Virus record (IMG/VR): IMGVR_UViG_2663762939_000006
Direction: 5' to 3' (one strand)
DNA: 38,440 nucleotides
From: a virus
Taxonomy: Duplodnaviria > Heunggongvirae > Uroviricota > Caudoviricetes
Below, piece after piece: positions 6,593 to 38,440 of this stretch; the stretch's first letter is position 1; each line of letters starts with the position of its first letter. The translations under genes and the position numbers were made by a program. The notes under the pieces were generated by a model. The model had not been told where the DNA came from and searched no databases. It worked only from the letters and a program-made list of their open reading frames with translations.

Positions 6593-6646
6593 GGGGGCAG
6601 TATTGCCCCCGTGCGGGAACGCTGATATTAAAGGCGTTTAAAAAGC

Positions 6647-25409: not shown

Positions 25410-26147
25410 TTACGTACCCACACAGCTTGCCCCTCCCCATGAGAGATAACGCGGGGCCAGCGTGAACAGGATGCGCTGGGGATAATGACGGTTCTCCCGC
25501 CAGCTGGCAGTGCTGCGTCCGGCATTCACCGTGGCGACATGACCAAACCAGCGGGTGCTGTCCAGCCCTTTTTGTGATGCAAGCCGCCTGTCCCGCTGTA
25601 CCCAGCCCAGACCACCGTTATAGCCCGACAGTGTCATGGCCATACGCTCGCAGTCACTGGCGGCGCTGACGCGCTGCCACAGCCAGCGGTCATAGCTGAC
25701 CAGCGCCCGGATGGCCCATGCCGGATTAAATGGCTCACGGCTGTTAAGCCCCGGCATCAACTGACTTATCCAGTCGGCGGTGGCGGGCATGAACTGCGCC
25801 AGTCCCTGAGCGCCAACCGGCGAGATCGCATCAGGTCGCCAGCCGCTTTCCTGATGCAGTTGCGCAGCGAAATCAGCCACCGGCGCAGACAGTCCCCATT
25901 CAAGCCGGGCATTACGGATCACATCATCGCGATACTGCAGCGCTGCCTGCGGAGGCTGCGCTGCGCGGGCCTGACTGAAGAAGCCGCCACACCAGAGCAA
26001 CATTGCGACAAAGAATACCCGTGCCATATGAACCAGAAAGGTCCCGGCGCGGACTGACAGGCGTTCGGTTCTGATGAAGACCCTAAAGGCTTCGAAAGCC
26101 AGTTTCAGGGACATGCATACAATCCAGGTGATCTGCGGCCAGTTCAT
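25410..26147 (-). CDS. lytic transglycosylase-type endolysin (SLT domain), signal/SAR-anchored
   Basis: ..AQLHQESGWRPDAISPVGAQGLAQFMP.. SLT-like motif; hydrophobic N-terminus; ATG at 26145-26147 two nt after holin stop (alternative ATG 26027). Confidence 0.7.
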   Translation of the reverse strand: MNWPQITWIVCMSLKLAFEAFRVFIRTERLSVRAGTFLVHMARVFFVAMLLWCGGFFSQARAAQPPQAALQYRDDVIRNARLEWGLSAPVADFAAQLHQESGWRPDAISPVGAQGLAQFMPATADWISQLMPGLNSREPFNPAWAIRALVSYDRWLWQRVSAASDCERMAMTLSGYNGGLGWVQRDRRLASQKGLDSTRWFGHVATVNAGRSTASWRENRHYPQRILFTLAPRYLSWGGASCVGT

Positions 26148-26149
26148 GA

Positions 26150-26500
26150 TTAAAGCCCCATCGCAACAGCCAGACAGACCGCTGCAACAATCAGTGCACG
26201 GCGGATTAACGCAGCAGAAAACACCAGGTGAAGGCCGGTCTGTACCGGGAAACGCCCATCAGCCATCAGCCTGTCGTCATGTTTCAGGTACTGACCGGGA
26301 CGGGCTTTGGGGAAGAGCGAACGGTCAAGCCAGTAACCCAGCACTGCTGCCAGCGTGATGAGTGCCAGCTTGTAGATCACAACAGGCAACTGCTGTGGTG
26401 AGACCAGAGCGATGGTGCCCAGCAACAGCACTGAGGTCAGCAGCCAGCCGCTGAGGCGAGGTTTTTTAACAGGGGGAATGAATTTTTTCAGGTTTTTCAT
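26150..26500 (-). CDS. holin-like membrane protein
   Basis: ATG at 26498-26500 with SD AAGGAG; three predicted TM segments; first gene of the lysis cassette. Confidence 0.55.
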   Translation of the reverse strand: MKNLKKFIPPVKKPRLSGWLLTSVLLLGTIALVSPQQLPVVIYKLALITLAAVLGYWLDRSLFPKARPGQYLKHDDRLMADGRFPVQTGLHLVFSAALIRRALIVAAVCLAVAMGL

Positions 26501-26630
26501 GTGTGTCTCCTTGTCTGGTGGAGACAGCATCACAAATACAGGGCGCGAAGGATTTTAAAGCGCGTTAAGAGAGCCGGGGATACGGGATGTGCAGGATAAA
26601 CGATGAATTATTCACAGAGGAGAATACGAT

Positions 26631-27374
26631 ATGACGCAGACACTGAATCCGGTCATCACTGTCACCGTGTCCGGTCCTGTGGGCAGCGGTAAAAGTTACA
26701 TATTGGCGCGGATAGAGGAAGTGGTGAAACAGGAATTCGGGGGCAGCGTCATTGTCGATGCTGCAGACGTAGATGATGAGCGGCGTATGAGTGGCGATGA
26801 TCTGACGACCTGGCAGAAGCCACGGGGTGGCACAGTGATCAGGCTGGAGGAATACACGGGACAGGGCCTGTTGTCATACGGCGAGGAGCGTATCTGTCGG
26901 ACGAATGAGCTGCTGGATGTTATATGCCCCACGGGCCGGCAACCCTGGATACTGCCCGATGCACTGCATGCCACCATTGCGGCACTGATGACAGTTTACG
27001 ATCAGGAGCTGCTCATGAAGGAGCTACGTAAACTCACCGGTCAGCCAACAGAATGTTTTTCTGCCCCGAAGTACGGGAAACAGGAACACATCCCGGTGAA
27101 CACGCTCCCCGTTAACCAGCCTCCCCGGTTCTTCGACGAATACATTCTGACACCGGAAAATAAAGCTGAGCACGAAGAGATCAAAGCGGCGTTGTTCCGG
27201 GAAATCAGGAAGATTGCTGAAATGCAACTGGGGGGCGGGCTGGACAGAGTGATGGCGAGAGGAGAATGGGAGTCGCTGTTTGAAAGAGTTTCCCCGGAAT
27301 TACTTCCCCTCGCACTGGCTATCGGGATTATGCAGACAGCGGATAAACCTCACTTACGTTCATTAAACACGTAA
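26631..27374 (+). CDS. P-loop NTPase (Walker A GPVGSGKS at residues 15-22), possibly small kinase-like; function unknown
   Basis: ATG 26631 with SD GAGGAG; divergent from the late operon; N-terminal Walker A then VIVDAAD. Confidence 0.6.
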   Translation: MTQTLNPVITVTVSGPVGSGKSYILARIEEVVKQEFGGSVIVDAADVDDERRMSGDDLTTWQKPRGGTVIRLEEYTGQGLLSYGEERICRTNELLDVICPTGRQPWILPDALHATIAALMTVYDQELLMKELRKLTGQPTECFSAPKYGKQEHIPVNTLPVNQPPRFFDEYILTPENKAEHEEIKAALFREIRKIAEMQLGGGLDRVMARGEWESLFERVSPELLPLALAIGIMQTADKPHLRSLNT

Positions 27375-27754
27375 CGCATAATCCGGGATACGCATTCAGC
27401 GATGACTGCATTTTCACCGGTTTTTACTGCATCCAGAAGTGACTCTTTAAATGGTGCGGGCCGGGGCTGCAGAAGGGTCGGCGTGGCATTGAGCAGACGG
27501 AGCGTTTTTTCCGTGAGGACGACATCAGCCGCTCCCACAGCCAGCAACTGAGAGTAACGAATATAGCTGTTATCCCGAAGCCATATCAGCGTATCAATAA
27601 AATACCGGCACTTTTTCTGGTCGTGATCAACCTGGTCCGGGATATCGAAAAAACCAGAATAAATCAAAACCTGAGGTGCCGGATGCGTGTTCAGTAATCG
27701 GCAGAATATTTTGCCGGTGAGTGCATAAAAATCATCATTTAAGGAGTGCATCAT
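27350..27754 (-). CDS. hypothetical protein (134 aa)
   Basis: 134-codon open frame unlikely by chance; start ATG shares the palindromic TCATGA with the plus-strand gene; weak SD. Confidence 0.4.
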   Translation of the reverse strand: MMHSLNDDFYALTGKIFCRLLNTHPAPQVLIYSGFFDIPDQVDHDQKKCRYFIDTLIWLRDNSYIRYSQLLAVGAADVVLTEKTLRLLNATPTLLQPRPAPFKESLLDAVKTGENAVIAECVSRIMRYVFNERK

Positions 27755-27968
27755 GAATCCCCGATTAACGTTAACAGAACATCAGCGCCGTGCTGAAGCA
27801 GTGAACAATGTTCTGGAAGATATTATCCGGTTACATCGCGGAGAACTGAGTGTCTGTCGTGCCGCTTTTCATTTTCAGGGAATACAAAAGCAGTTTGATA
27901 CTTCTGTTTTTGCAGAAGGTATTACTTATGCCCTGGACCGGATAAGGTCAGAAAATCGCCCCGGATAA
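27753..27968 (+). CDS. hypothetical small protein (71 aa)
   Basis: ATG 27753 preceded by strong SD AAGGAG at 27741-27746. Confidence 0.6.
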   Translation: MNPRLTLTEHQRRAEAVNNVLEDIIRLHRGELSVCRAAFHFQGIQKQFDTSVFAEGITYALDRIRSENRPG

Positions 27969-28157
27969 TCCCTAAACCACATTAACAGAAATCCCACTAT
28001 CCCTGCCGCATCATGAAAGAACGACCAGCCCGGAACCCGAAATCCGGGCTGGCCATCGTCCCACAGGAATGCACTGTGAGCCGACCGAGGTTCAGTCAGT
28101 CTCGCGAGACCAGACTAGCCTGCCATATTTTTAGTAATTGTAAAAGGCTTACAGATT

Positions 28158-28922
28158 ATGAAAATGCAGACATTACCCATCGTTCCATGGATTGGTGGCA
28201 AACGCCGCCTTGCAAAACACATTCTGCCGCTGTTTCCGGCGCATGAATGTTATGTGGAGCCGTTTTGTGGGGCAGCAGCGCTCTATTTTCTTAAGACACC
28301 CGGCAAGATCGAAGTCATTAATGATATCAACGGTGAACTGGTGAATCTGTACCGGGTGGTAAAGCATCACCTGGAAGAATTTGTCCGCCAGTTCAAATGG
28401 GCGCTGGTCAGCCGTCAGATCTACAAATGGCTGCAGATCACCCCGGAAGAAACACTGACGGATATCCAGCGTGCGGCACGGTTCTACTACCTTCAGAAGC
28501 AGGCGTTTGGCGGCAAGGTGGCAGAGCACAGCTTCGGTACCTCCACCACATCCCCGCCACGCTTCAACCTGCTGCGTATTGAAGAAGAACTGTCAACAGC
28601 ACACCTGCGGCTTTCCAGAACAGTCATAGAACACATGGACTGGCAACAGTGCATTGAGCGTTATGATCGTCCGCACACACTGTTCTACTGCGACCCACCG
28701 TACCTGGGTACGGAAGGCTATGGTGTGGATTTTCCTGAAGGGAACTACTCGCGGCTGGCAGAGCTGGCCCGGTGCATCAGAGGAAAAATGATAATTTCGG
28801 TGAACGATATCCCACAGATGCGCGAGGTGTTCACTGGACTGAACATACAGACAGTGAACATCAACTACAGTCTGGCGGGGAAATCCACGCCGCGCCGTGA
28901 ACTGGTAATCTGCAACTTCTGA
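28158..28922 (+). CDS. DNA N6-adenine methyltransferase (Dam-like, D12 class)
   Basis: N-terminal ..KRRLAKHILPLFPAHECYVEPFCGAAALYF.. and catalytic DPPY motif (YCDPPYLGTEGYG). Confidence 0.85.
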   Translation: MKMQTLPIVPWIGGKRRLAKHILPLFPAHECYVEPFCGAAALYFLKTPGKIEVINDINGELVNLYRVVKHHLEEFVRQFKWALVSRQIYKWLQITPEETLTDIQRAARFYYLQKQAFGGKVAEHSFGTSTTSPPRFNLLRIEEELSTAHLRLSRTVIEHMDWQQCIERYDRPHTLFYCDPPYLGTEGYGVDFPEGNYSRLAELARCIRGKMIISVNDIPQMREVFTGLNIQTVNINYSLAGKSTPRRELVICNF

Positions 28923-28952
28923 AACAAAACCGGAAAGCACAATGCTTTCCGG
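28922..28952 (-). terminator. rho-independent terminator downstream of the repressor gene
   Basis: 9-bp GC-rich stem CCGGAAAGC/GCTTTCCGG with 5-nt loop, followed on the minus strand by TTTTGTTT. Confidence 0.6.
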
Positions 28953-29038
28953 TAAACCAAACAACTTCCACTATGTCACTGGCGATGTTTTCTGAAAGCA
29001 TCCAGATCAACCACCTGTCCTTTGTGTCCAGGTCAAAA

Positions 29039-29377
29039 TCAGCCTGCGAGTTTGCTTGGTTTGGGTTGAATGAAGACTTTGCCGACCTCAAGAATTGCCC
29101 TCCGTTGTTCGGGGCTCATTTCGTCGAATGCATCCATTAACTCTTTCTTTTCTTGTGACACATAAGGTGCAACAACAGGCTGACTCCGCACCCCAGTAAC
29201 TACATACAAAATATCTACACCGATTTCTGATAGTGCAGATAACTGCACTGCAGTAGGAGAAGTGCGATCTTTTTCCCAATCAATGAAAGTTCTCTTTGCC
29301 ACACCTATAGCATCAGCCAACCCTTGCTGTGTAAGAGATAGACGCTCTCTTTCTTCTTTAATACGTAACCCGATCAT
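29039..29377 (-). CDS. XRE-family HTH repressor (immunity repressor candidate); start ambiguous (29377, 29452/29455 or 29530)
   Basis: MIGLRIKEERERLSLTQQGLADAIGVAKRTFIDWEKDRTSP is a classic XRE helix-turn-helix; divergent from the Ner-like gene. Confidence 0.7.
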   Translation of the reverse strand: MIGLRIKEERERLSLTQQGLADAIGVAKRTFIDWEKDRTSPTAVQLSALSEIGVDILYVVTGVRSQPVVAPYVSQEKKELMDAFDEMSPEQRRAILEVGKVFIQPKPSKLAG

Positions 29378-29401
29378 GTGAGTTTTTCTGCACTCTTTAA
29401 G

Positions 29402-29430
29402 TTGACTGGTGAGGTAATCTGCACCATAAT
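29402..29430 (+). promoter_or_regulatory. sigma70-type early promoter (-35 TTGACT, 17-bp spacer, -10 CATAAT) with overlapping imperfect palindrome
   Basis: Near-consensus hexamers 48 bp upstream of the Ner-like ATG; TGGTGAG-N6-TGCACCA palindrome spans the spacer. Confidence 0.6.
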
Positions 29431-29477
29431 CTATCACACATAAGGCAAACATCATTGCATCAACAAAGGAGACAACG

Positions 29478-29666
29478 ATGACTGCAGAACAAGTCAAAGC
29501 TCTCTTCCGCCAGCGCGGGATCACTTTCACCCGCTGGGCAGAAGAAAACGGCTACAACCGCAATGAGGTATACCGCGTTCTCAATGGGCAGACCAAAGCC
29601 CGTTACGGTAAATCCCATGAAATCGCCGTGAAGTTGGGGCTGAAATCAACAGCTCAGGCAGCCTGA
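29478..29666 (+). CDS. ner: Ner/Nlp-like small DNA-binding regulator
   Basis: SD AAAGGAGA then ATG 29478; ..GYNRNEVYRVLNGQTKARYGKSHEIAVKLGL aligns with Mu Ner ..GYAPTTLANALERHWPKGEQIIANAL as recalled. Confidence 0.6.
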   Translation: MTAEQVKALFRQRGITFTRWAEENGYNRNEVYRVLNGQTKARYGKSHEIAVKLGLKSTAQAA

Positions 29667-29712
29667 AGATTTTGAGTCTTTGTAAAAGGTTATCACATAT
29701 CGCAAAAGAGGT

Positions 29713-30027
29713 ATGCAGATGAGTAAGACGAATGTTTCAAGCTCCGGCAGTCGCATCCTCCGGGTACTCAAAGCGCTGCGCGGTCATGCCCTGAACGGTA
29801 TTTCCAACGGTGAACTGGCGGCAGCACTGCACGAGTCACCGGCAAACATCAACCGGGCACTCAACACCCTCATTGAAGAAGGGTTGGCCCTGAAACTGGA
29901 AAACGGGCGTTTCGCGCCGGGCATCCAGTTACTGCAGATCGCTATGGCCCACAGTAACGAGATGGCACGTGCACAGGATCGCATTAACGAAATCAACCAA
30001 CGTGTCATTTCAGGTAGTCGTTTGTAA
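29713..30027 (+). CDS. small winged-helix DNA-binding protein (IclR/MarR-like HTH)
   Basis: ..ILRVLKALRGHALNGISNGELAAALHESPANINRALNTLIEEGLA.. wHTH pattern; SD AAGAGG. Confidence 0.5.
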   Translation: MQMSKTNVSSSGSRILRVLKALRGHALNGISNGELAAALHESPANINRALNTLIEEGLALKLENGRFAPGIQLLQIAMAHSNEMARAQDRINEINQRVISGSRL

Positions 30028-30037
30028 GGAGTAATAA

Positions 30038-30949
30038 ATGGGACGCACCAAATCACCGATTAACACTGAACTGAACGCCGAGGTACCGCTGTCGGATGAT
30101 CTCAATGTCAGTCTGAACGCCATGACACAGCATCGTATGGAGATCATGCAGCAGTTTGGCGATGGTCAGCCCTATGAGCGTGATCGCATAGTTCATGAGG
30201 CTCGGTTTTATATGGCACAGAGCGCTGAGGCCATGCTGGAAGCAGGTAAACGACTTATTATTCTCAAAGAAAATGAACCTCACGGGGACTTTGTTGGAAT
30301 TGTAGAAGAACAACTTGGTCTGCATGTGCGCGCAGCACAACGAATGATGAAAGCATCTTTGAAATACCTTTCACCAAAACTAGAGCCAAAAGCGACAACG
30401 TTGTCGCTTTTAGGTAAGGCAAAATTATTTGAACTTGTTGCTGAAGATGACGACGACCTTGCTGAACTGGCCGACGGTGGCACAGTTGCCGGACTGACGC
30501 TTGACGATGTTGATCGCATGTCAGTACGTGAATTGCGTCAGGCCCTGCGCGAAGCGCGCGAAACCAACGCAGCACAACAGCGCGTACTCGCCGACAAAAA
30601 TGAAAAAATAGACTCACTCTCCACCAGACTGGAGAAGAAATCCCGTATTCAGCCACCTGAGCCTGATGAAGAGGTGAAGAAACTGCGGGCAGAAGTGACC
30701 GCGTTAGCGGTTGAGGCGGAATCTGCCATCGCCGTTCGACTGTCCAGCGCTTTTGAGACGCTGTGCGCATATTGTGCTGAAAACATGATTGATACCCCCA
30801 GAGACTTCATGGCAGGCCTGGTCTGTCAACTGGAAAGCACAGCGCGTAGCCTGCGCTCCACATTTGACCTGCCGGACGAGCCAACAGGCAATGCAGCGCC
30901 TTCATGGCTGACTGAGCCGACGCCACAGATTAACGGGCTGGAGGCATAA
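30038..30949 (+). CDS. hypothetical early protein (303 aa, coiled-coil-rich)
   Basis: SD AAGGAG, ATG 30038; immediately upstream of transposase. Confidence 0.5.
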   Translation: MGRTKSPINTELNAEVPLSDDLNVSLNAMTQHRMEIMQQFGDGQPYERDRIVHEARFYMAQSAEAMLEAGKRLIILKENEPHGDFVGIVEEQLGLHVRAAQRMMKASLKYLSPKLEPKATTLSLLGKAKLFELVAEDDDDLAELADGGTVAGLTLDDVDRMSVRELRQALREARETNAAQQRVLADKNEKIDSLSTRLEKKSRIQPPEPDEEVKKLRAEVTALAVEAESAIAVRLSSAFETLCAYCAENMIDTPRDFMAGLVCQLESTARSLRSTFDLPDEPTGNAAPSWLTEPTPQINGLEA

Positions 30950-30952
30950 CCA

Positions 30953-32722
30953 ATGAATGCTGCCCTGACTGAACGACTGGTTTATGTCGCCCGCGCGGCA
31001 CGTGACGCGGGGCATGGTAAACGCGGTGCAATATACGACGCTGCCTGTGCTGAACTTGGCATGTCCCGCGCCACTCTGCTGCGCAGGCTGAAGGAGGTCT
31101 CTGTGACTGATAAACGCAAAAAACGCGCCGATGCCGGGCGCAGCGCCCTGACCCGCGACGAAGCCGCGCTGATATCTGCCACACTGCGTGAGGCCACCCG
31201 CAAGAACGGTAAGCGTCTCTATTCCATCGCAGATGCAGTGGAAACCCTGCGGGCTAACGGCTTTATCACCGCAGGCAGAACAGATGAAACCACCGGTGAG
31301 TTTTTCCCGTTGTCCGAAGATGCCATCAGCCGAGCCCTGCGTAACTATGGCCTGCACCCGGAACAACTGGATGCCCCTGCGCCGCATACCGAAGTGGCCA
31401 GTCTGCATCCCAATCATGTCTGGCAGATTGATGCCTCTCTCTGCACGCTTTACTACCTGAGCAATGGACACAAAGGGCTGCAGGTGATGGACAGCGCGAA
31501 GTTCTACAAGAACAAACCCGCTAACCTTGCCCGTATCGCCAGTGACCGCGTGTGGAGTTACGAGATTACCGACCATGCCAGCGGCTGGATTTACGTTGAG
31601 TATGTGACGGGTGCGGAATCCGGTGAGAACCTGTGTTCTGTGCTTATCAACGCCATGCAGGAGCGTGGCGGCGCAGACGTGCTGCACGGCGTGCCAAAAA
31701 TACTCTATCTCGACCCCGGCTCGGCAAACACCGCGGGTATGACGAAAAACATGTGCCACTCACTGGGCATTGACCTGATAGCGCACAAGCCGCATAACGC
31801 CCGCGCCACCGGACAGGTGGAAAAGGCGCGTGACATTATCGAACGCAAGCTGGAGCCGGGTCTGAAGTTCCGGCCGGTTCACAGTCTGGAAGAACTCAAC
31901 GCGCTGGCCGCGAAATGGCGCAGCCACTTTAACGCCACGGCTGTTCACAGCCGCCACGGTAAAACCCGCACGGATATCTGGCTGAAGATTACTGCTGAGC
32001 AGCTGAAAAAAGCGCCTTCCGTTGAGGTATGCCGTGAACTGGCTGTGGCGGCACCAGAACTCCGCAAAGTCACGCCAAAACTTCGTGTCTCGTTCCGGGG
32101 CACTGAATTTGACGTATCAACGGTACCGGGCGTACTGGTTGGTGAAAAACTGATGATTACCCGTAACCCGTGGCGCAGCGATGTGGCACAGGTGGTTCTG
32201 ACCGGTGAGGACGGCCACGAGACGTTCTTCCTGGTCGAAGAGGTCAGAAAGAACGAGTTTGGCTTTGCTGAAGGCGCGGCGGTATTTGGCGAAAGTTACA
32301 AAGCCCTGCCGGAAACCCCGGCGCAGATGGCGGCAAAAGAAACCGAAGCGCTGGTCACCGGTACAGACAACGCCGCAGATGCAGCTGCCGCACGCAAGGC
32401 GAAGGCGCTGCCGTTCGGCGGGCGGCTTGACCCGTATAAACATATCGACGACACCACACTTCCGGCCTATATGCCGAAGCGTGGTCAGGCCTCTGACGTA
32501 CGCGGGCCGCGCACTGAACAACGTCCCATGACTCATGTGGAGGCCGCGAAAGCCCTGCGCGATAAGTTCAGCGCCGACGGCCTTACCTGGACGCCGGAAC
32601 ATTACCGCCAGTTAACGGCACAGTACCCGGACGGCGTACCGGAAGCCGCACTGGATGAAGTCATGGCCACGCTGACCACACCGGCCCGCAGCAGTGTTAT
32701 CAGCATTGTTAACGGCAACTGA
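30953..32722 (+). CDS. DDE transposase (Mu A-like, integrase-core fold)
   Basis: 589 aa; ..HVWQIDAS.. and ..LYLDPGSANT.. acidic-residue blocks consistent with a DDE/rve core; followed by a B-like ATPase. Confidence 0.8.
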   Translation: MNAALTERLVYVARAARDAGHGKRGAIYDAACAELGMSRATLLRRLKEVSVTDKRKKRADAGRSALTRDEAALISATLREATRKNGKRLYSIADAVETLRANGFITAGRTDETTGEFFPLSEDAISRALRNYGLHPEQLDAPAPHTEVASLHPNHVWQIDASLCTLYYLSNGHKGLQVMDSAKFYKNKPANLARIASDRVWSYEITDHASGWIYVEYVTGAESGENLCSVLINAMQERGGADVLHGVPKILYLDPGSANTAGMTKNMCHSLGIDLIAHKPHNARATGQVEKARDIIERKLEPGLKFRPVHSLEELNALAAKWRSHFNATAVHSRHGKTRTDIWLKITAEQLKKAPSVEVCRELAVAAPELRKVTPKLRVSFRGTEFDVSTVPGVLVGEKLMITRNPWRSDVAQVVLTGEDGHETFFLVEEVRKNEFGFAEGAAVFGESYKALPETPAQMAAKETEALVTGTDNAADAAAARKAKALPFGGRLDPYKHIDDTTLPAYMPKRGQASDVRGPRTEQRPMTHVEAAKALRDKFSADGLTWTPEHYRQLTAQYPDGVPEAALDEVMATLTTPARSSVISIVNGN

Positions 32723-32732
32723 GGAGGGAAAC

Positions 32733-33899
32733 ATGCTGGTACTGAAGCAGCAACTGAAAGAGGCCCGTATTCCACAGGCGGTGGTGGCGAGAGCTGTCGA
32801 TGTTTCTGAGGCCACGCTGGCCCAGATTGTGAATCATAACGCGTGGCCCCGCACCAGCCCCGGAGAAGTGCGCCGGCGTCTTGCGTCCTGGCTGGAAAGT
32901 CAGGGGATTGATACAACGAAGAGTTTTGATGCTGTACAGGGCGCGGCCACGCCCCGTACAGCGGGTACCACAGATAAAACGAGCCTCAGTGAGGAAGAGA
33001 ATATGTTACTCAAAAAACAGGTGTTATTTCCAGCAACCAAAAAAGCGTTTGGTCTTTTCCGTGACCCGTTCGCCGACGAAGCCATTCAGGGTTCTGATGA
33101 TGTGTTCACCACCCCGGACATTCGCTACGTGCGTGAGGCGTTGTACCAGACAGCCCGTCATGGTGGGTTTATGGCCGTCATCGGTGAGTCCGGTGCGGGT
33201 AAATCCACGCTGCGCCGCGACCTGACTGAACGTATCAACCGCGAGAATGCGCCGGTAATTGTTATCGAGCCATACATCATCGCTATGGAAGACAACGATG
33301 TGAAAGGGAAAACCCTGAAGGCAGCAGCGATTGCCGAAGCCATTATCAGTACCATCGCACCACTGGAAAGCATCAGACGCAGTCAGGACGCCCGCTTTCG
33401 CCAGTTGCATCGCGTCCTGAAAGACAGCAGCCAGGCGGGGTTCAGCCACGTTCTGGTGATTGAGGAGGCCCACAGTCTGCCTATTCCGACACTGAAACAC
33501 CTCAAACGCTTTTTTGAGCTGGAGTCCGGTTTCAAAAAACTGCTGTCCATCGTGCTGATTGGCCAGCCGGAACTGGCGACAAAACTGTCTGAACGCAATA
33601 TGGAAGTCCGTGAAGTCGTTCAGCGCTGTGAGGTGGTCGAACTTCTGCCTCTGGACAATAACCTTGAAGAGTTTCTGACGTTCAAACTGCAACGGGCCGG
33701 TAAACAACTGACGGACATTATGGACGCCAGCGCAGTGGATGCCATACGTGCCCGCCTGAGCAATCCGGGAAGTCATCGTAAAAATATGGTCAGCCTGCTG
33801 TATCCGCTGGCCGTCAGTAACCTGGTAATAGCCGCCATGAATCTGGCCGCTGAAATCGGGGTTCCACAGGTCAACGCTGACGTTGTCAAAGGGGTTTAA
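32733..33899 (+). CDS. transposition ATPase (Mu B-like AAA+ with N-terminal HTH)
   Basis: ATG 32733 after SD GAGGAGGG; Walker A GESGAGKST; N-terminal DNA-binding-like segment. Confidence 0.75.
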   Translation: MLVLKQQLKEARIPQAVVARAVDVSEATLAQIVNHNAWPRTSPGEVRRRLASWLESQGIDTTKSFDAVQGAATPRTAGTTDKTSLSEEENMLLKKQVLFPATKKAFGLFRDPFADEAIQGSDDVFTTPDIRYVREALYQTARHGGFMAVIGESGAGKSTLRRDLTERINRENAPVIVIEPYIIAMEDNDVKGKTLKAAAIAEAIISTIAPLESIRRSQDARFRQLHRVLKDSSQAGFSHVLVIEEAHSLPIPTLKHLKRFFELESGFKKLLSIVLIGQPELATKLSERNMEVREVVQRCEVVELLPLDNNLEEFLTFKLQRAGKQLTDIMDASAVDAIRARLSNPGSHRKNMVSLLYPLAVSNLVIAAMNLAAEIGVPQVNADVVKGV

Positions 33900-33901
33900 T
33901 A

Positions 33902-34171
33902 ATGAAATCCACCACAGGTATCAACCAGCAAATCAGCAAAGTGCAGTCAGCCATTATGGCGCTTAAGGCGACGAACACGGATGTACAAAGCATCACCATC
34001 AGGGGTAACAAACCTGTCATCCGCGTTTCCCGGAGTGCGCATTGCATGCGCATGCTTGAGCAGGGAAAGGCCTGTTATCTGTATACCGGTCATGACCACA
34101 GGGGACATTTCCGTCAGGGCGTTTTCGAACTGCACGGCTGTCGCGTCGTGTGGCCGGAATCTTTGTGGTAA
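33902..34171 (+). CDS. hypothetical small protein (Cys/His-containing)
   Basis: ATG 33902 abutting B stop (TAATAATG). Confidence 0.45.
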   Translation: MKSTTGINQQISKVQSAIMALKATNTDVQSITIRGNKPVIRVSRSAHCMRMLEQGKACYLYTGHDHRGHFRQGVFELHGCRVVWPESLW

Positions 34172-34198
34172 TCAGCACAACAGGAGGAGTCATAAAAT

Positions 34199-34729
34199 AT
34201 GGCAAAAAGTACAAAAGGGGCAAAACGTATCAAAGCCGCAGCAGCACTCTGGGTGCCGGGGACACGCGAAGAGGTCATTGAGGGAATCAGACTGCTTGGT
34301 GACGCGCAACGTGAACTGGTCAGGGCTGAAACAGAAATGAATGACACCATTGGCGACATCACCGCACGTTATGCCCCGCTCACCGAGAGCCTGAAAAAAC
34401 GCATGGCCGAACTGCAGTCCGGTATTCAGACATGGTGTGAGGCACACCGTAATGAACTGACCGGCAACGGGAAGGTGAAGTTCGCTAACCTCACCACCGG
34501 CGAGGTGCAGTGGCGAAACCGTCCGCCATCAGTCAGTATCCGTGGGGCGGATAATGTTATTGAATTACTGAGACGTCTGGGGCTTGAGCGCTTTATCCGT
34601 GTAAAGGAGGAAATAAATAAAGACGCCATCCTGAATGAAAAGGACGCCGTGAAAAATATTCCCGGTATTACCATAAAAAGTGATATTGAGGATTTTTCAA
34701 TAATTCCTTTTGAGCAGAATGTGCAGTAA
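34199..34729 (+). CDS. gam: Gam-like host-nuclease inhibitor (DNA-end binding)
   Basis: SD AGGAGG; 176 aa; N-terminal Lys-rich ..RIKAAAALWVPGTREEV.. then coiled-coil, as in Mu Gam. Confidence 0.7.
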   Translation: MAKSTKGAKRIKAAAALWVPGTREEVIEGIRLLGDAQRELVRAETEMNDTIGDITARYAPLTESLKKRMAELQSGIQTWCEAHRNELTGNGKVKFANLTTGEVQWRNRPPSVSIRGADNVIELLRRLGLERFIRVKEEINKDAILNEKDAVKNIPGITIKSDIEDFSIIPFEQNVQ

Positions 34730-34825
34730 AAACAGCATATAAGCTATTTAAAACAGCCTTTTCTTTTTTATTCCGGCATCAGCGCCGTGGGCTTCTGCAC
34801 GCCGGAAACAGAGGAGAATTAAATC

Positions 34826-35020
34826 ATGATATTTAAATGTATTCAGTGCGAGAGGGATATAACAGCCCTGCGTTTTCACAGCGCCATCGCCGTGATGTCC
34901 GGTAAGTACCACGTACCTGCAGTACGCGTCACCCTGGTCTGTCCGTACTGCAGTCAGCATTTTTCGGCAGACGTGCCCGTCATGGAATTCTCCCGCCCTG
35001 ACAGGGAGGACTCGCAATGA
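34826..35020 (+). CDS. small zinc-ribbon protein (CxxC...CxxC)
   Basis: CIQC and CPYC pairs; SD GAGGAG. Confidence 0.5.
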   Translation: MIFKCIQCERDITALRFHSAIAVMSGKYHVPAVRVTLVCPYCSQHFSADVPVMEFSRPDREDSQ

Positions 35021-35289
35021 TTACCCCACAGGAAGCACGACAGCGCACCCGAACCCTTGTTGAACACTATGTCAACGAGTGTGAATGCCGCGACCTCACC
35101 GATGTGAAGCACGTCCTGACGGCGCTAATCAGCATGACCGCTCAGGCCATTGTGGCGACCAACGGAAAGGCGGCTGCCCTGCAGGTACTGGTGAACACAC
35201 TCACCCACACGGCAGAGCACGATGTGCCGTACCGGATGGAAACCACTGCAGAAGGCGGCCTGCACATCACCGTCGACCGGAAACACTGA
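35017..35289 (+). CDS. hypothetical protein (90 aa)
   Basis: ATG overlaps upstream stop (ATGA); SD GGGAGGA. Confidence 0.45.
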   Translation: MITPQEARQRTRTLVEHYVNECECRDLTDVKHVLTALISMTAQAIVATNGKAAALQVLVNTLTHTAEHDVPYRMETTAEGGLHITVDRKH

Positions 35290-35298
35290 GGGCGCGGC

Positions 35299-35604
35299 AT
35301 GACACGGAACACCGAACTCACCCGCACCGCCCTCTACCGTCTGGCCCTGCAGCGTTTCGGGCCGGACGCACAGGCCCTGAAACTGACAGAAGAGGCCGCT
35401 GAACTGGCGGCCAGTGCCGCCCGCAACCTGAACGGACAGGGCAGCGAAAGTGACCTCGCGGCAGAGCTGGCAGACGTGGAAATCATGACAGAGCAGCTGC
35501 GCCTTCAGGGAATGGACCGGCTGATTGACTTCCACAAACAGAAAAAACTGGAACGCCTTGCCGCACGGCTGGGCGTCATGTACACCGGAGATACTGAACA
35601 ATGA
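35299..35604 (+). CDS. MazG-like nucleotide pyrophosphohydrolase domain protein
   Basis: ..LTEEAAELAASAAR.. and ..AAELADVEIMTEQL.. resemble the EExxE / ExxD metal-binding helices of MazG-family proteins. Confidence 0.5.
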   Translation: MTRNTELTRTALYRLALQRFGPDAQALKLTEEAAELAASAARNLNGQGSESDLAAELADVEIMTEQLRLQGMDRLIDFHKQKKLERLAARLGVMYTGDTEQ

Positions 35605-36284
35605 CAGACCAGGATAAACACATTGAGAAACTGAAAAAGTTGCTGGCGCTGGCCGCATCCGGCAACCCTCACGAGGCCGCTCTGGCACTGCGCCGTGCCC
35701 GTAAACTGATGGATGTTCACGGCATCACACATTCCGACATCGCCATGAGTGATATTGATGAAACCATCAGTCACTACTGGCCGACAGGCAGCCTCCGTCC
35801 ACCGCGCTACATGCTGGGCCTGATGAACATCATCCGCGAGGCATTTGGTGTTAACTCCATCATTCACCCCGGCACATATCCGGGTGTGGGGTTCTACGGC
35901 AACCGGGAACGGGCTGCACTGGCTGCGTACACCTGGGAAGTGCTGGCCCGCCAGCTGAAAAAGGCGCGTCAGCAATATATCAGCGCACAGAACAAAAGAA
36001 TAAAAACTGCCACCCGTACCAGCCGTGGTGACCAGTTTGCTGAAGGCTGGGTGCTGGCCGTTATCAGTGAAATACAGTCCTTCGCCCTGACCGATGACGA
36101 ACGTGAACTGATGCAGCAGTGGCTGGAACATAAATACCCGCAGACGCAAACCACCAGGGCGCGTAAACCGGGAAGAAGCCGCAATGGCGACGCCTCGCGC
36201 TATGCGGGGTTTCTTGAAGGGCAGAACGTCAGACTGCACCGCCCGGTCAGTGGGCAGGAACAACAGAAACTGGAGGCCAGATGA
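35601..36284 (+). CDS. hypothetical protein with DUF2786-like N-terminus
   Basis: ..KHIEKLKKLLALAASGNPHEAALALRRARKLM.. ; translationally coupled. Confidence 0.45.
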   Translation: MTDQDKHIEKLKKLLALAASGNPHEAALALRRARKLMDVHGITHSDIAMSDIDETISHYWPTGSLRPPRYMLGLMNIIREAFGVNSIIHPGTYPGVGFYGNRERAALAAYTWEVLARQLKKARQQYISAQNKRIKTATRTSRGDQFAEGWVLAVISEIQSFALTDDERELMQQWLEHKYPQTQTTRARKPGRSRNGDASRYAGFLEGQNVRLHRPVSGQEQQKLEAR

Positions 36285-36511
36285 TTACGCTATCAGGTAA
36301 AAGCCGGAAATTAAAAGCCTGCCGAATATCTGCCAGATACCTTTTTGCCCGCGCCTTTTTTAAGAACGTCAGGCCGGGGATCACAATTGGTGTTATTGCC
36401 GGACGCGAACAGGTTGAAAAATACATGTCAGGTGCATGGTGGAATAACGACCCTGTCATTGCTGCCCGTAATATTCATATCAGTTGGGGGGATATTCAGA
36501 ATGACGGCTGA
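36281..36511 (+). CDS. hypothetical small protein (76 aa)
   Basis: ATG 36281 overlaps upstream stop; SD GGAGG. Confidence 0.4.
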   Translation: MITLSGKSRKLKACRISARYLFARAFFKNVRPGITIGVIAGREQVEKYMSGAWWNNDPVIAARNIHISWGDIQNDG

Positions 36512-36716: not shown

Positions 36717-37158
36717 ACAACGTCTTATCCAGCTCATTCATATTGCCCGTAATGAACTGGGTATGGATGAAGACACCTACCGCCAGATGTTACAGGGGCT
36801 GACCGGTAAAGCCTCAACCAAAGGAATGGATACCACACAACTAAACTGCGTGCTGGAATCCATGAAAAGGAAAGGCTTTCGCGTTAAGCCTGCCGGAAAA
36901 GCCAGCTCCGGTTTACCGCTGGATAACCATCCGCAGTCCAGGAAAATCCGTGCGCTATGGCTTGAAATGGCTGCTGCCGGCATTGTTCGTGACCGTTCAG
37001 AAAATGCATTAGCGCGGTGGATCAAGCGGGAAACGGGCATCAGCGCCCTGCGCTGGCTCAGTACTGAACAGGCAAGCAGTGTTATTGAGAAACTGAAGAA
37101 GTGGCAGCGCAGAGCTGCGGGAGTCAAACATGAGCGACCTGAATCAGTTTCGAAGTAA
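36706..37158 (+). CDS. gemA: GemA-like regulatory protein
   Basis: SD AAAAGGAG, ATG 36706; ..LIQLIHIARNELGMDEDTYRQMLQGLTGKAS.. resembles the Mu GemA family. Confidence 0.6.
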   Translation: MMTKQRLIQLIHIARNELGMDEDTYRQMLQGLTGKASTKGMDTTQLNCVLESMKRKGFRVKPAGKASSGLPLDNHPQSRKIRALWLEMAAAGIVRDRSENALARWIKRETGISALRWLSTEQASSVIEKLKKWQRRAAGVKHERPESVSK

Positions 37159-37528
37159 AGGGCCGGAACTCCTGGTGGAGCTGGCACAGCATACCTCTGA
37201 GACCGTTCGCGAGATTATTGATATTGAGCCCGCAATTGCCGACCAGATTGGTCAGGCCGTCGCGAACCGAATGATGCAGGTCTGGGGCGGGCAAAATGTT
37301 TATTTCCCGATGGGCATGGTATGGAAGGTCAGTCAGCGCGACCGGGAAATCTTCAGGGAGTTTAACGGACGCAACCACCACGAACTGGCCCGCAAGTTTG
37401 GTGTTTCGCTTCAGTGGGTCTACAGCGTGGTTAAGCGGGTCAGAAAAGAAGAACTGGATCGGATGCAGGGCAGGTTGTTTGATGAAGATCTGCCAGAGGA
37501 GACGAAAGACGTTAACAAATCCAGATAA
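37130..37528 (+). CDS. mor: Mor/C-family transcription activator
   Basis: 132 aa; C-terminal HTH ..NHHELARKFGVSLQWVYSVVKRVRKEE.. typical of the Mor/C family; last gene of the early operon as in Mu. Confidence 0.7.
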   Translation: MSDLNQFRSKGPELLVELAQHTSETVREIIDIEPAIADQIGQAVANRMMQVWGGQNVYFPMGMVWKVSQRDREIFREFNGRNHHELARKFGVSLQWVYSVVKRVRKEELDRMQGRLFDEDLPEETKDVNKSR

Positions 37529-37573
37529 TTCCTGCTTGTTAAAGTCCTTTCAAAAATCTCCTTATTGTATAAA

Positions 37574-38278: not shown

Positions 38279-38440
38279 TTATTTTTTCCCTGGGGCAGGG
38301 GCTGCCGGCATAGTGGTTTTATTGGCAGAGGAAGACGATTCTCCTTTTCTACCGGAATCGCGCTCGAACGTCACGATGTGCTTGCTTTTGGGCTTTTCTG
38401 AGTAATCCAGGCTATCATGCTTATTGTTTTGAGTAGTCAT
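38279..38440 (-). CDS. small Lys/Ser-rich hydrophilic ORF (53 aa in window; may extend past window end)
   Basis: ATG at the last three bases of the window, stop TAA 38279-38281; convergent with the membrane protein gene. Confidence 0.3.
   Translation of the reverse strand: MTTQNNKHDSLDYSEKPKSKHIVTFERDSGRKGESSSSANKTTMPAAPAPGKK

Follow-up and report, generated by a model that had tools for sequence, protein, structure and literature searches.

In phage Mu, the com–mom system joins DNA modification to a late promoter of the activator type and to an mRNA structure that blocks a ribosome-binding site (RBS), and the activator sites of Mu lie just upstream of weak −10 elements. Here, we set beside this system a locus from the IMG/VR virus record IMGVR_UViG_2663762939_000006 (Caudoviricetes), whose whole stretch of 38,440 nucleotides is called the window below. 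The locus consists of a gene for a D12-class (alpha-type) orphan N6-adenine DNA methyltransferase, hereafter the methylase, and the region preceding it. The two systems resemble each other in that both involve DNA modification in a Mu-like phage, a late activator-type promoter (inferred here), and an RBS-blocking mRNA structure (predicted here). They differ in the enzyme, since a D12 methyltransferase replaces Mom, and in that the prophage described here is without Com; moreover, the methylase promoter contains no GATC and shows no sign of control of the Dam/OxyR type, and the structured leader, a three-helix element of about 150 nt, is far larger than the translation-inhibition stem of mom. 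We judge it reasonably probable that the gene encodes a mom-like, late, translationally gated methylase that modifies phage DNA during lytic growth. The methylase gene is real, intact and already annotated, hence itself known; the added value lies mainly upstream of the open reading frame (ORF), in a late-type promoter and a structured switch absent from Rfam, and in a recognition hairpin that is not Dam-like.

The closest described counterpart resides in Escherichia coli EC958 (sequence type ST131), in which a syntenic BcepMu-type prophage encodes a methylase identical at 251 of 254 residues (99%) and agrees with the one described here in its cargo ORFs, its promoter site and its leader. This gene (1031787–1032551) is very probably M.EcoMIV (EC958_1101, prophage Phi2), a match drawn from the published description. 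M.EcoMIV was described as an orphan methylase of family PF02086 whose transcription was significantly below that of dam in mid-log LB cultures, and to which no motif could be assigned and no characterised homologue above 65% identity was found (Forde et al. 2015, PMC4659465); that account includes neither the leader, nor the promoter family, nor the divergence of the DNA-recognition hairpin. In a Salmonella lysogen carrying a BcepMu-type prophage, standard motifs only were detected (PMC3868858). More distant homologues, at 64–66% identity, are gp27 of phiE125, gp26/27 of phi1026b, gp25 of KS9 and the methylase of VP882, from Burkholderia and Vibrio phages. They share the invariant hairpin and the leader with the prophage described here and occupy cargo positions beside lysis or tail genes, whereas they belong to other phage types and hosts (some of which lack Dam) and have unrelated promoters. 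M.EcoGIX turned out to be an unrelated plasmid enzyme.

The methylase ORF is preceded by a conserved structured leader with three helices, P1, P2 and P3 (Table 1). The 145 nt before the AUG were better conserved than the coding sequence when the copies from ABU, EC958 and PhiKM were compared with those from GON1437 and KP12, and a leader hairpin shows compensatory changes. A coding role of the leader is excluded because a 1-nt indel separates close relatives; two coding explanations, a 77-aa ORF at 28013–28246 and the N-terminal extension annotated in PhiKM, were rejected on these grounds, and GON1437 has no ATG there. We built a covariance model from 28 diverse leader copies and a manual P1–P2–P3 structure; with MAFFT and RNAalifold, no helices beyond P1 and the P3 apex were recovered from these 28 sequences. 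When this model was searched against IMG/VR loci with methylases of 61–100% identity, the leader abutted the start codon on the sense strand in 69 of the 80 loci. It was also found in the phiE125, VP882, KP12, GON1437 and EC958 loci (25–142 bits) and in TJ1, with the same architecture upstream of the phiE125 and VP882 methylase genes. A nucleotide-only scan of viral contigs with a 17-nt core returned 80 loci, including 45 leader copies confirmed by the model, and a methylase followed in 44 of these 45. The remaining copy, after which there is no sizeable ORF, looks like a deletion remnant. An orphan leader in locus L122 (7665–7807) is similar to the remnant found in E. coli A24.

Pairing in the leader is maintained through sequence change. 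Across a 68-sequence alignment, 84.9% of cells were paired over P1–P3, compared with 68.1% after shuffling and approximately 35% when the partners were slid, and double changes occurred in 24 of the 30 leader pairs. The covariation score was 0.470 versus 0.177, with 0 of 500 shuffles as high; these shuffle statistics are inflated, because the alignment had been fitted to the model and its members are relatives of one another. All 12 pairs of P1 changed on both sides (89.5% of cells paired), and its apical loop is conserved across clades. P2 was paired in 97.8% of cells, with AU, UA and GC exchanging at column pair 68–86, and all four pairs of the P3 apex covary, with weaker support for the P3 base. 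In view of the slid control and of the variety of pair types seen in P1, in P2 and at the P3 apex, we find the covariation of the aligned leader sequences convincing. There was no Rfam 15 match at the gathering score in the window, none meaningful at E ≤ 10 on 27985–28180, and none in 20 related loci. A candidate cis-regulatory RNA motif named D12-methyl, ascribed to Weinberg et al. in 2017, reportedly lies upstream of D12-class methyltransferase genes; the leader may be identical with it, akin to it or unrelated.

The leader contains a second, long-range helix, here called the sequestor, that competes with P2. Its 5′ strand consists of the 3′ strand of P2 and the adjoining junction J2/3, and its 3′ strand, GGCUUACAG, overlaps the Shine–Dalgarno (SD) sequence AAGG at 28144–28147. 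P2 and the sequestor are mutually exclusive because they have five bases in common (28074–28078). Complementarity between the two sequestor strands is kept by clade-specific sequences: CUGCAAGUC and GACUUGCAG in L041, UGUAAACC and GGUUUACA in L057, CGUGAGCC and GGCUCACG in L065, GUGAGCC and GGCUCAC in VP882, and GUGAA..GGCC and GGCUUUCAC in phiE125. Cognate duplexes averaged −12.55 kcal/mol versus −9.84 kcal/mol for non-cognate ones; of 59 comparisons, 55 favoured the cognate duplex, and none of 5,000 permutations performed as well. In 47 of 59 cases, the sense-strand version of the duplex was also the more stable one. Seven of the nine pairs of this helix showed double changes even though the alignment used had not been fitted to it, and the five central pairs were almost always formed. 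A pairing of the P3 3′ strand (AGCCU) with the SD, seen by eye, was set aside, as the sequestor explains the covariation better. The leader was assigned to the sense strand from its fixed position at the AUG and from the sequestor helix.

Constrained folds of the predicted transcript gave −50.1 kcal/mol with P2 and −50.8 kcal/mol with the sequestor, a difference of 0.7 kcal/mol. Because two exclusive states are nearly isoenergetic, the leader is predicted to act as a translational switch, and its modelled anatomy is that of a bistable one in which the RBS would be occluded by a covarying 9-bp helix (28074–28082 with 28146–28154). The P1 apical loop and the conserved junctions suggest that the leader has a specific partner, and the switch could be set by a metabolite, a phage protein or co-transcriptional folding kinetics. 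We tentatively raise the possibility that the leader is an uncatalogued class of bistable translational switch for phage D12 methyltransferases, either a riboswitch for S-adenosylmethionine or S-adenosylhomocysteine or the target of a phage protein, that is used by beta- and gamma-proteobacterial phages and replaces Com or lies upstream of it.

The methylase appears to be transcribed from its own promoter, which belongs to a family recurring in the window. The upstream site TAAACCACATTAACAG is conserved before the methylase in five divergent copies despite differing surroundings. The composite pattern, TAAWNNNCNTTAANA followed by 20 nt and NANNNT, has seven sites in the window at no more than one mismatch, compared with 0.20 expected by chance, and none of 100 shuffles reached seven. 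All seven sites are intergenic and each is oriented toward an operon (Table 1); the two lying back to back within 26526..26597 overlap as a near-palindrome that serves both strands. EC958 retains six of the seven, the site at 37540 not being found there, and KP12 retains the holin and methylase sites. The predicted methylase transcript starts at about 28021, 2 nt before P1, and no sigma-70 consensus promoter was found upstream of the methylase on the + strand. Promoters of this family stand before the lysis, head, tail and baseplate operons as well, and the methylase therefore looks, from its sequence context, like a late gene. By analogy with Mu, we infer that the family represents late promoters served by the single Mor-family protein of the prophage. 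The original prediction had assigned the gene to the control region; its own late-family promoter, together with the variable cargo slot described below, speaks against membership of the early control circuit.

A subset of relatives combines this leader with Com, which ties the two together in evolution. In these loci, an ORF for the Mu Com zinc ribbon (PF10122) lies between leader and methylase, and the leader ends at the com start codon; because com occupies this place, it is com that the leader would control there. Curvibacter phage TJ1 has the same leader–com–methylase layout. In the window, no Com gene is annotated and no Com zinc ribbon was found; likewise, the annotation of the prophage contains no Mom, and its enzyme, a PF02086 protein, is not of the Mom family. 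The view that this Mu-like phage lacks the mom module therefore holds. Within the methylase family, one principle, the silencing of a DNA-modifying enzyme through mRNA structure, appears in two layers.

The enzyme itself is a complete D12-class adenine methyltransferase with a DPPY motif, as the original prediction stated. It matches PF02086 (MethyltransfD12) from end to end, over profile positions 1–248 of 253 (E = 5e-29; 102.2 bits, cut-off 22), and RefSeq lists the same coordinates as a DNA adenine methylase (WP_000783855.1). Motif I for S-adenosylmethionine (AdoMet), EPFCGAAALYF at residues 34–44, aligns to EPFVGAGSVF of E. coli Dam (EcoDam), and the acidic motif VINDIN (53–58) aligns to ILADIN; both are invariant across the methylase subfamily, and the AdoMet motifs on whose absence the prediction could have foundered are thus present. 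Catalytic motif IV, D179-P-P-Y182, follows the recognition region toward the C terminus and aligns to the DPPY of EcoDam and DpnM. E. coli Dam, T4 Dam and DpnM (PDB 2g1p, 2dpm) share the Pfam family and the motif order with this protein, which we regard as an active-looking orphan N6-adenine DNA methyltransferase from its conserved motifs. Among 5,426 complete E. coli genomes, 527 (approximately 10%) have it as an annotated gene. Some giant proteins of 1,000–1,600 aa (P0123, P0139, P0142 and P0150) contain three to four tandem copies of a domain about 30–35% identical to the methylase.

The sequence recognised by the enzyme is less clear than its class. The protein barely passed the TIGR00571 'dam' subfamily model (117.3 bits, cut-off 114.85) and scored 68 bits against a cut-off of 441 with the Dam equivalog NF008152. 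Its best relatives with solved structures are all GATC enzymes, and distant ones (DpnM, 7e-17; EcoDam, 4e-14). The recognition hairpin reads FGGKVAEHSFGTSTTSPPRF here versus YNGLCRYNLRGEFNVPFGRY in EcoDam, and the positions aligned to EcoDam K9, L122, R124 and P134 are P, K, A and S. In published EcoDam–DNA structures, these four EcoDam residues are GATC contacts. Because the contact positions are not conserved, the label Dam/GATC is unproven; 'Dam-type' is accurate as to the D12 class and goes too far as to GATC specificity. A register-shifted K120/P134 pair is conceivable. The hairpin residues F117, G118, K120, F126, G127, T128, T130, T131 and P134 are invariant across the subfamily, and as this variant hairpin does not change, the aligned group as a whole probably shares a single specificity. 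For GATC as the target, we see a roughly even chance. The methylomes of lysogens without an extra motif (PMC4659465, PMC3868858) fit GATC specificity and silence alike. An AlphaFold2 model of the methylase was poor (mean pLDDT 55, from an 18-sequence alignment of 85–95% identity). In a leaderless methylase lineage (L044, L046), the AT-rich upstream region at about 1400–1500 contains two inverted repeats, TGATCGATTTAACCGATCA and TGATCAGTTAAATCGATCA, which together hold four GATC sites, and could be an operator or a methylation-sensitive promoter. These four sites are the only hint, and a weak one, in favour of GATC specificity.

Table 1. Coordinates of the features of the methylase locus and its surroundings. 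Positions refer to the window unless a related locus is named.
Feature	Position	Strand	Description
Orphan methylase gene, D12 class	28158..28922	+	254 aa, ATG start
Conserved structured 5′ leader	28009..28160	+	Covariance-model match 132.8 bits; ends at AUG
Helix P1	28023..28054	+	12 bp; GACCAGCCCGGA paired with TCCGGGCTGGCC
Helix P2	28062..28078	+	CACAG / CTGTG, 7-nt loop; 'anti-sequestor' state
Helix P3	28088..28121	+	Long imperfect hairpin; base AGGUU...AGCCU, apex GUCU[CGCG]AGAC
Sequestor strand CUGUGAGCC	28074..28082	+	P2 3′ strand and J2/3 (next four bases)
Sequestor partner GGCUUACAG	28146..28154	+	3′ part of SD region and spacer; ends 3 nt before AUG (28158)
Predicted late-type methylase promoter	27973..28014	+	Upstream site TAAACCACATTAACAG (27973-27988), 20 nt, −10-like CATCAT
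Promoter-family site	26567->26526	−	Toward holin/lysis operon
Promoter-family site	19169->19128	−	Toward head operon
Promoter-family site	13252->13211	−	Toward tail operon
Promoter-family site	6640->6599	−	Toward baseplate operon
Promoter-family site	26556->26597	+	Toward cargo gene 26631
Promoter-family site	37540->37581	+	Toward right-end cargo gene 37643
Mor-family transcription activator	37130..37528	+	PF08765, E = 1e-43; sole Mor/C homologue in prophage
Holin	26150-26500	−	Lysis cassette, left of methylase
Cargo ORF	26631-27374		247 aa, P-loop GPVGSGKS
Cargo ORF	27350-27754		134 aa, opposite strand
Cargo ORF	27753-27968		71 aa, start overlaps 134-aa ORF divergently
Terminator-like hairpin with T-run	28929..28953	−	Ends repressor transcript; 7 nt beyond methylase stop codon
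HTH_3 repressor gene	29039..29530 (also 29039-29497)	−	Neighbour to right, outside methylase unit
Early promoter	29402-29430		TTGACT-17-CATAAT
Com-type ORF	L087, 1347-1541		PF10122, E = 8e-17
Com-type ORF	L031, 1335-1571		PF10122, E = 7e-13
Com-type ORF	L092, 1329-1484		Between leader and methylase

The window holds a BcepMu-type transposable prophage inserted in rstB, and the 5 kb tested (26000–31000) is 100% identical to E. coli ABU 83972 (NC_017631.1). The 3′ part of rstB occupies window positions 1 to approximately 939/940, and on the right the prophage terminates near 38440. The genes for lysis, head, tail and baseplate point leftward from 26533, and the early operon runs rightward from 29478 with genes for a Ner-like protein, an IclR-type helix-turn-helix protein, DUF3102, an rve transposase, an ExeA-like ATPase, Gam, GemA and Mor. 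This is the Bcepmuvirus gene order, with the early operon (transposase to Mor) divergent from the lysis, head and tail operons, and Escherichia phage PhiKM, the phage record nearest to the prophage, is likewise assigned to Bcepmuvirus. The presence of a Gin-like recombinase gene (1014–1586, − strand) beside the tail-fibre genes hints at an invertible segment for host range. The coordinates bear out that the methylase lies between accessory genes and the repressor gene, upstream of the repressor terminator. Read on the + strand, the hairpin of that terminator follows directly after the methylase stop codon and has no U-run.

The slot between the holin and repressor genes is variable, with other content or no methylase in relatives. 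In BcepMu it holds three unrelated genes and no methylase. In E. coli A24 (L003, 5850–6046), the leader survives with only 46 nt from the start of the methylase ORF, an unrelated ORF on the − strand having replaced the remainder, and GON1437 and Klebsiella phage KP12 carry a version of the methylase of 81–86% identity in a different arrangement. In the window, three cargo ORFs lie between holin and methylase (26631–27968). None of the three received a significant Pfam or PADLOC assignment, so nothing in these flanking ORFs points to a partner nuclease or to a defence system. The methylase gene is dispensable cargo and is not wired into the repressor or early circuit.

GATC is found in the window at 0.57 of expectation, and CTAG occurs only twice. 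No GATC lies in 27626–28306, which covers the methylase promoter and the leader, nor in the −35 and −10 elements of the early promoter, to which the nearest sites are at 29372 and 29519. The richest 2-kb bin is 28–30 kb, with 10 sites; over 26500–29500, where the original prediction had proposed looking for motif enrichment, 12 sites stand against about 8 expected at window density, which is not significant. The 5.9 kb from 30513 to 36378 contain no GATC at all, compared with 15.6 (Markov) to 21.8 (base composition) expected. This gap begins at the end of the DUF3102 gene, spans the transposase, ExeA-like ATPase and Gam genes and reaches the DUF2786 gene, and so takes in most of the early operon. 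EC958 and PhiKM share it (6,149 bp), GON1437 shows part of it, and BcepMu (7.6 GATC/kb) does not have it.

Several points weigh against a late, translationally gated methylase of lytic growth. Besides the inflated shuffle statistics of the leader, the G–U and A–C counts over P1–P3 (157 versus 173) do not discriminate between the strands. The upstream promoter element is defined solely by its recurrence in this analysis, and binding of Mor to it rests on the analogy with Mu. The site at 6640 leaves 6 nt between the −10 element and the ATG, and a baseplate mRNA starting from it would be almost leaderless. An enzyme specific for GATC would be largely redundant in a Dam+ host. Finally, the phi1026b homologue (65% identical) reached 21,563 reads per kilobase per million (RPKM) in a lysogen culture, exceeding structural genes (PMC2920897), and expression of the methylase may accordingly not be strictly lytic.

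That last observation also favours the main rival, namely that the gene is a lysogenic-conversion 'moron' whose product is made in the prophage state and acts on the host chromosome, shielding it from restriction–modification systems or altering gene expression. The cargo slot, flanked as it is by other accessory ORFs, would suit such a gene, and phiE125 lysogens of Burkholderia mallei reportedly contain N6-methyladenine. However, the promoter family heads lysis and virion operons, and the SD-sequestering leader, together with Com in relatives, argues for tight limits on expression; in addition, the EC958 homologue was transcribed below dam and the lysogen showed no extra motif (PMC4659465). 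On balance, we consider a moron rather unlikely. A further question is whether the conserved block is an mRNA leader at all, as it might instead be an operator or promoter acting at the DNA level, or encode a cis-antisense small RNA on the − strand. For the latter, there is a promoter-like site, TTTTCA-16-TACAAT (28164→28137, −), after which P1 followed by the pyrimidine-rich tail UCGUUCUUUC on that strand could serve as a terminator; the − strand folds stably (z = −4.75), and the near equality of the G–U and A–C counts is compatible with either strand. Yet the helix sequences vary freely while pairing is kept, unlike the half-sites of a binding protein, and the start codon of the following ORF, be it methylase or com, invariably marks the end of the element. 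Moreover, the antisense −35 and −10 elements are poorly conserved in GON1437 and KP12, and the long-range helix over the SD is, as given above, mostly more stable on the sense strand. These explanations are therefore improbable.

Two other roles would tie the enzyme to the phage's own regulation or DNA handling. According to the original prediction, the methylase could belong to immunity or early control, with methylation at 26.5–29.5 kb coupling the repressor and early promoter to the methylation state. Dam control of Mu Pmom and of IS10 is a precedent for such promoters, the gene lies beside that of the repressor and points the same way as the early operon, and the richest GATC bin falls just there. 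GATC is nevertheless lacking in the methylase promoter and leader as well as in the early hexamers, the count over the region is not significant, and nothing was found in support of the proposed link between promoter activity and methylation state. Furthermore, BcepMu and some E. coli relatives have the same control region without the gene, host Dam already methylates GATC, and the chance that the methylase shares that specificity is only about even; we regard this role as distinctly improbable. Methylation might alternatively serve DNA transactions of the phage, such as methylation-dependent packaging or the transposition ends, rather than protection from restriction. The late-type promoter would agree with this, and phage P1 Dam with its pac site, along with IS10 and Tn5, provides precedents. 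Closely related prophages and BcepMu do without the gene, however, and the leader–methylase cassette also occurs in unrelated types, including the siphoviruses phiE125 and KS9, the plasmid-prophage VP882 and P2-like genomes. Because the same cassette occurs in such unrelated phages, a mechanistic role specific to one phage is unlikely, and we give this explanation very little credence.

We therefore return to the late, translationally gated methylase of lytic growth, for which the following course may be proposed. The methylase would form a small transcription unit of its own, read from a phage-specific activator-type promoter, whose activator is presumed to be the single Mor-family protein. 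The transcript would open with the leader of about 140 nt containing P1, P2 and P3. With P2 formed, the ribosome-binding region would be free, and with CUGUGAGCC paired to GGCUUACAG, the ribosome site would be buried. The enzyme would then probably be made only briefly during lytic growth and methylate progeny DNA before packaging, and DNA so methylated would be protected from restriction in the next host. An anti-restriction purpose, which the original prediction had offered, is thus a reasonable one. The regulatory logic would be that of Mu com/mom, while the enzyme is unrelated and the RNA device differs.

Taken alone, the methylase is routine; it belongs to the 'silent' prophage methylases to which methylome surveys have assigned neither site nor purpose. 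A late promoter and an SD-sequestering leader would explain why such a gene is silent in lysogens. The seven-site promoter family would constitute a first map of the late regulon of enterobacterial BcepMu-type prophages, which are common in extraintestinal pathogenic E. coli (ExPEC). If the leader indeed represents an uncatalogued switch class, RNA folding would set the dosage of the methylase in the lytic cycle, and the enzyme with its non-Dam hairpin may methylate a sequence other than GATC. If new, the leader would add a class of regulatory RNA for phage anti-restriction, and with it a testable parallel to Mu com/mom.

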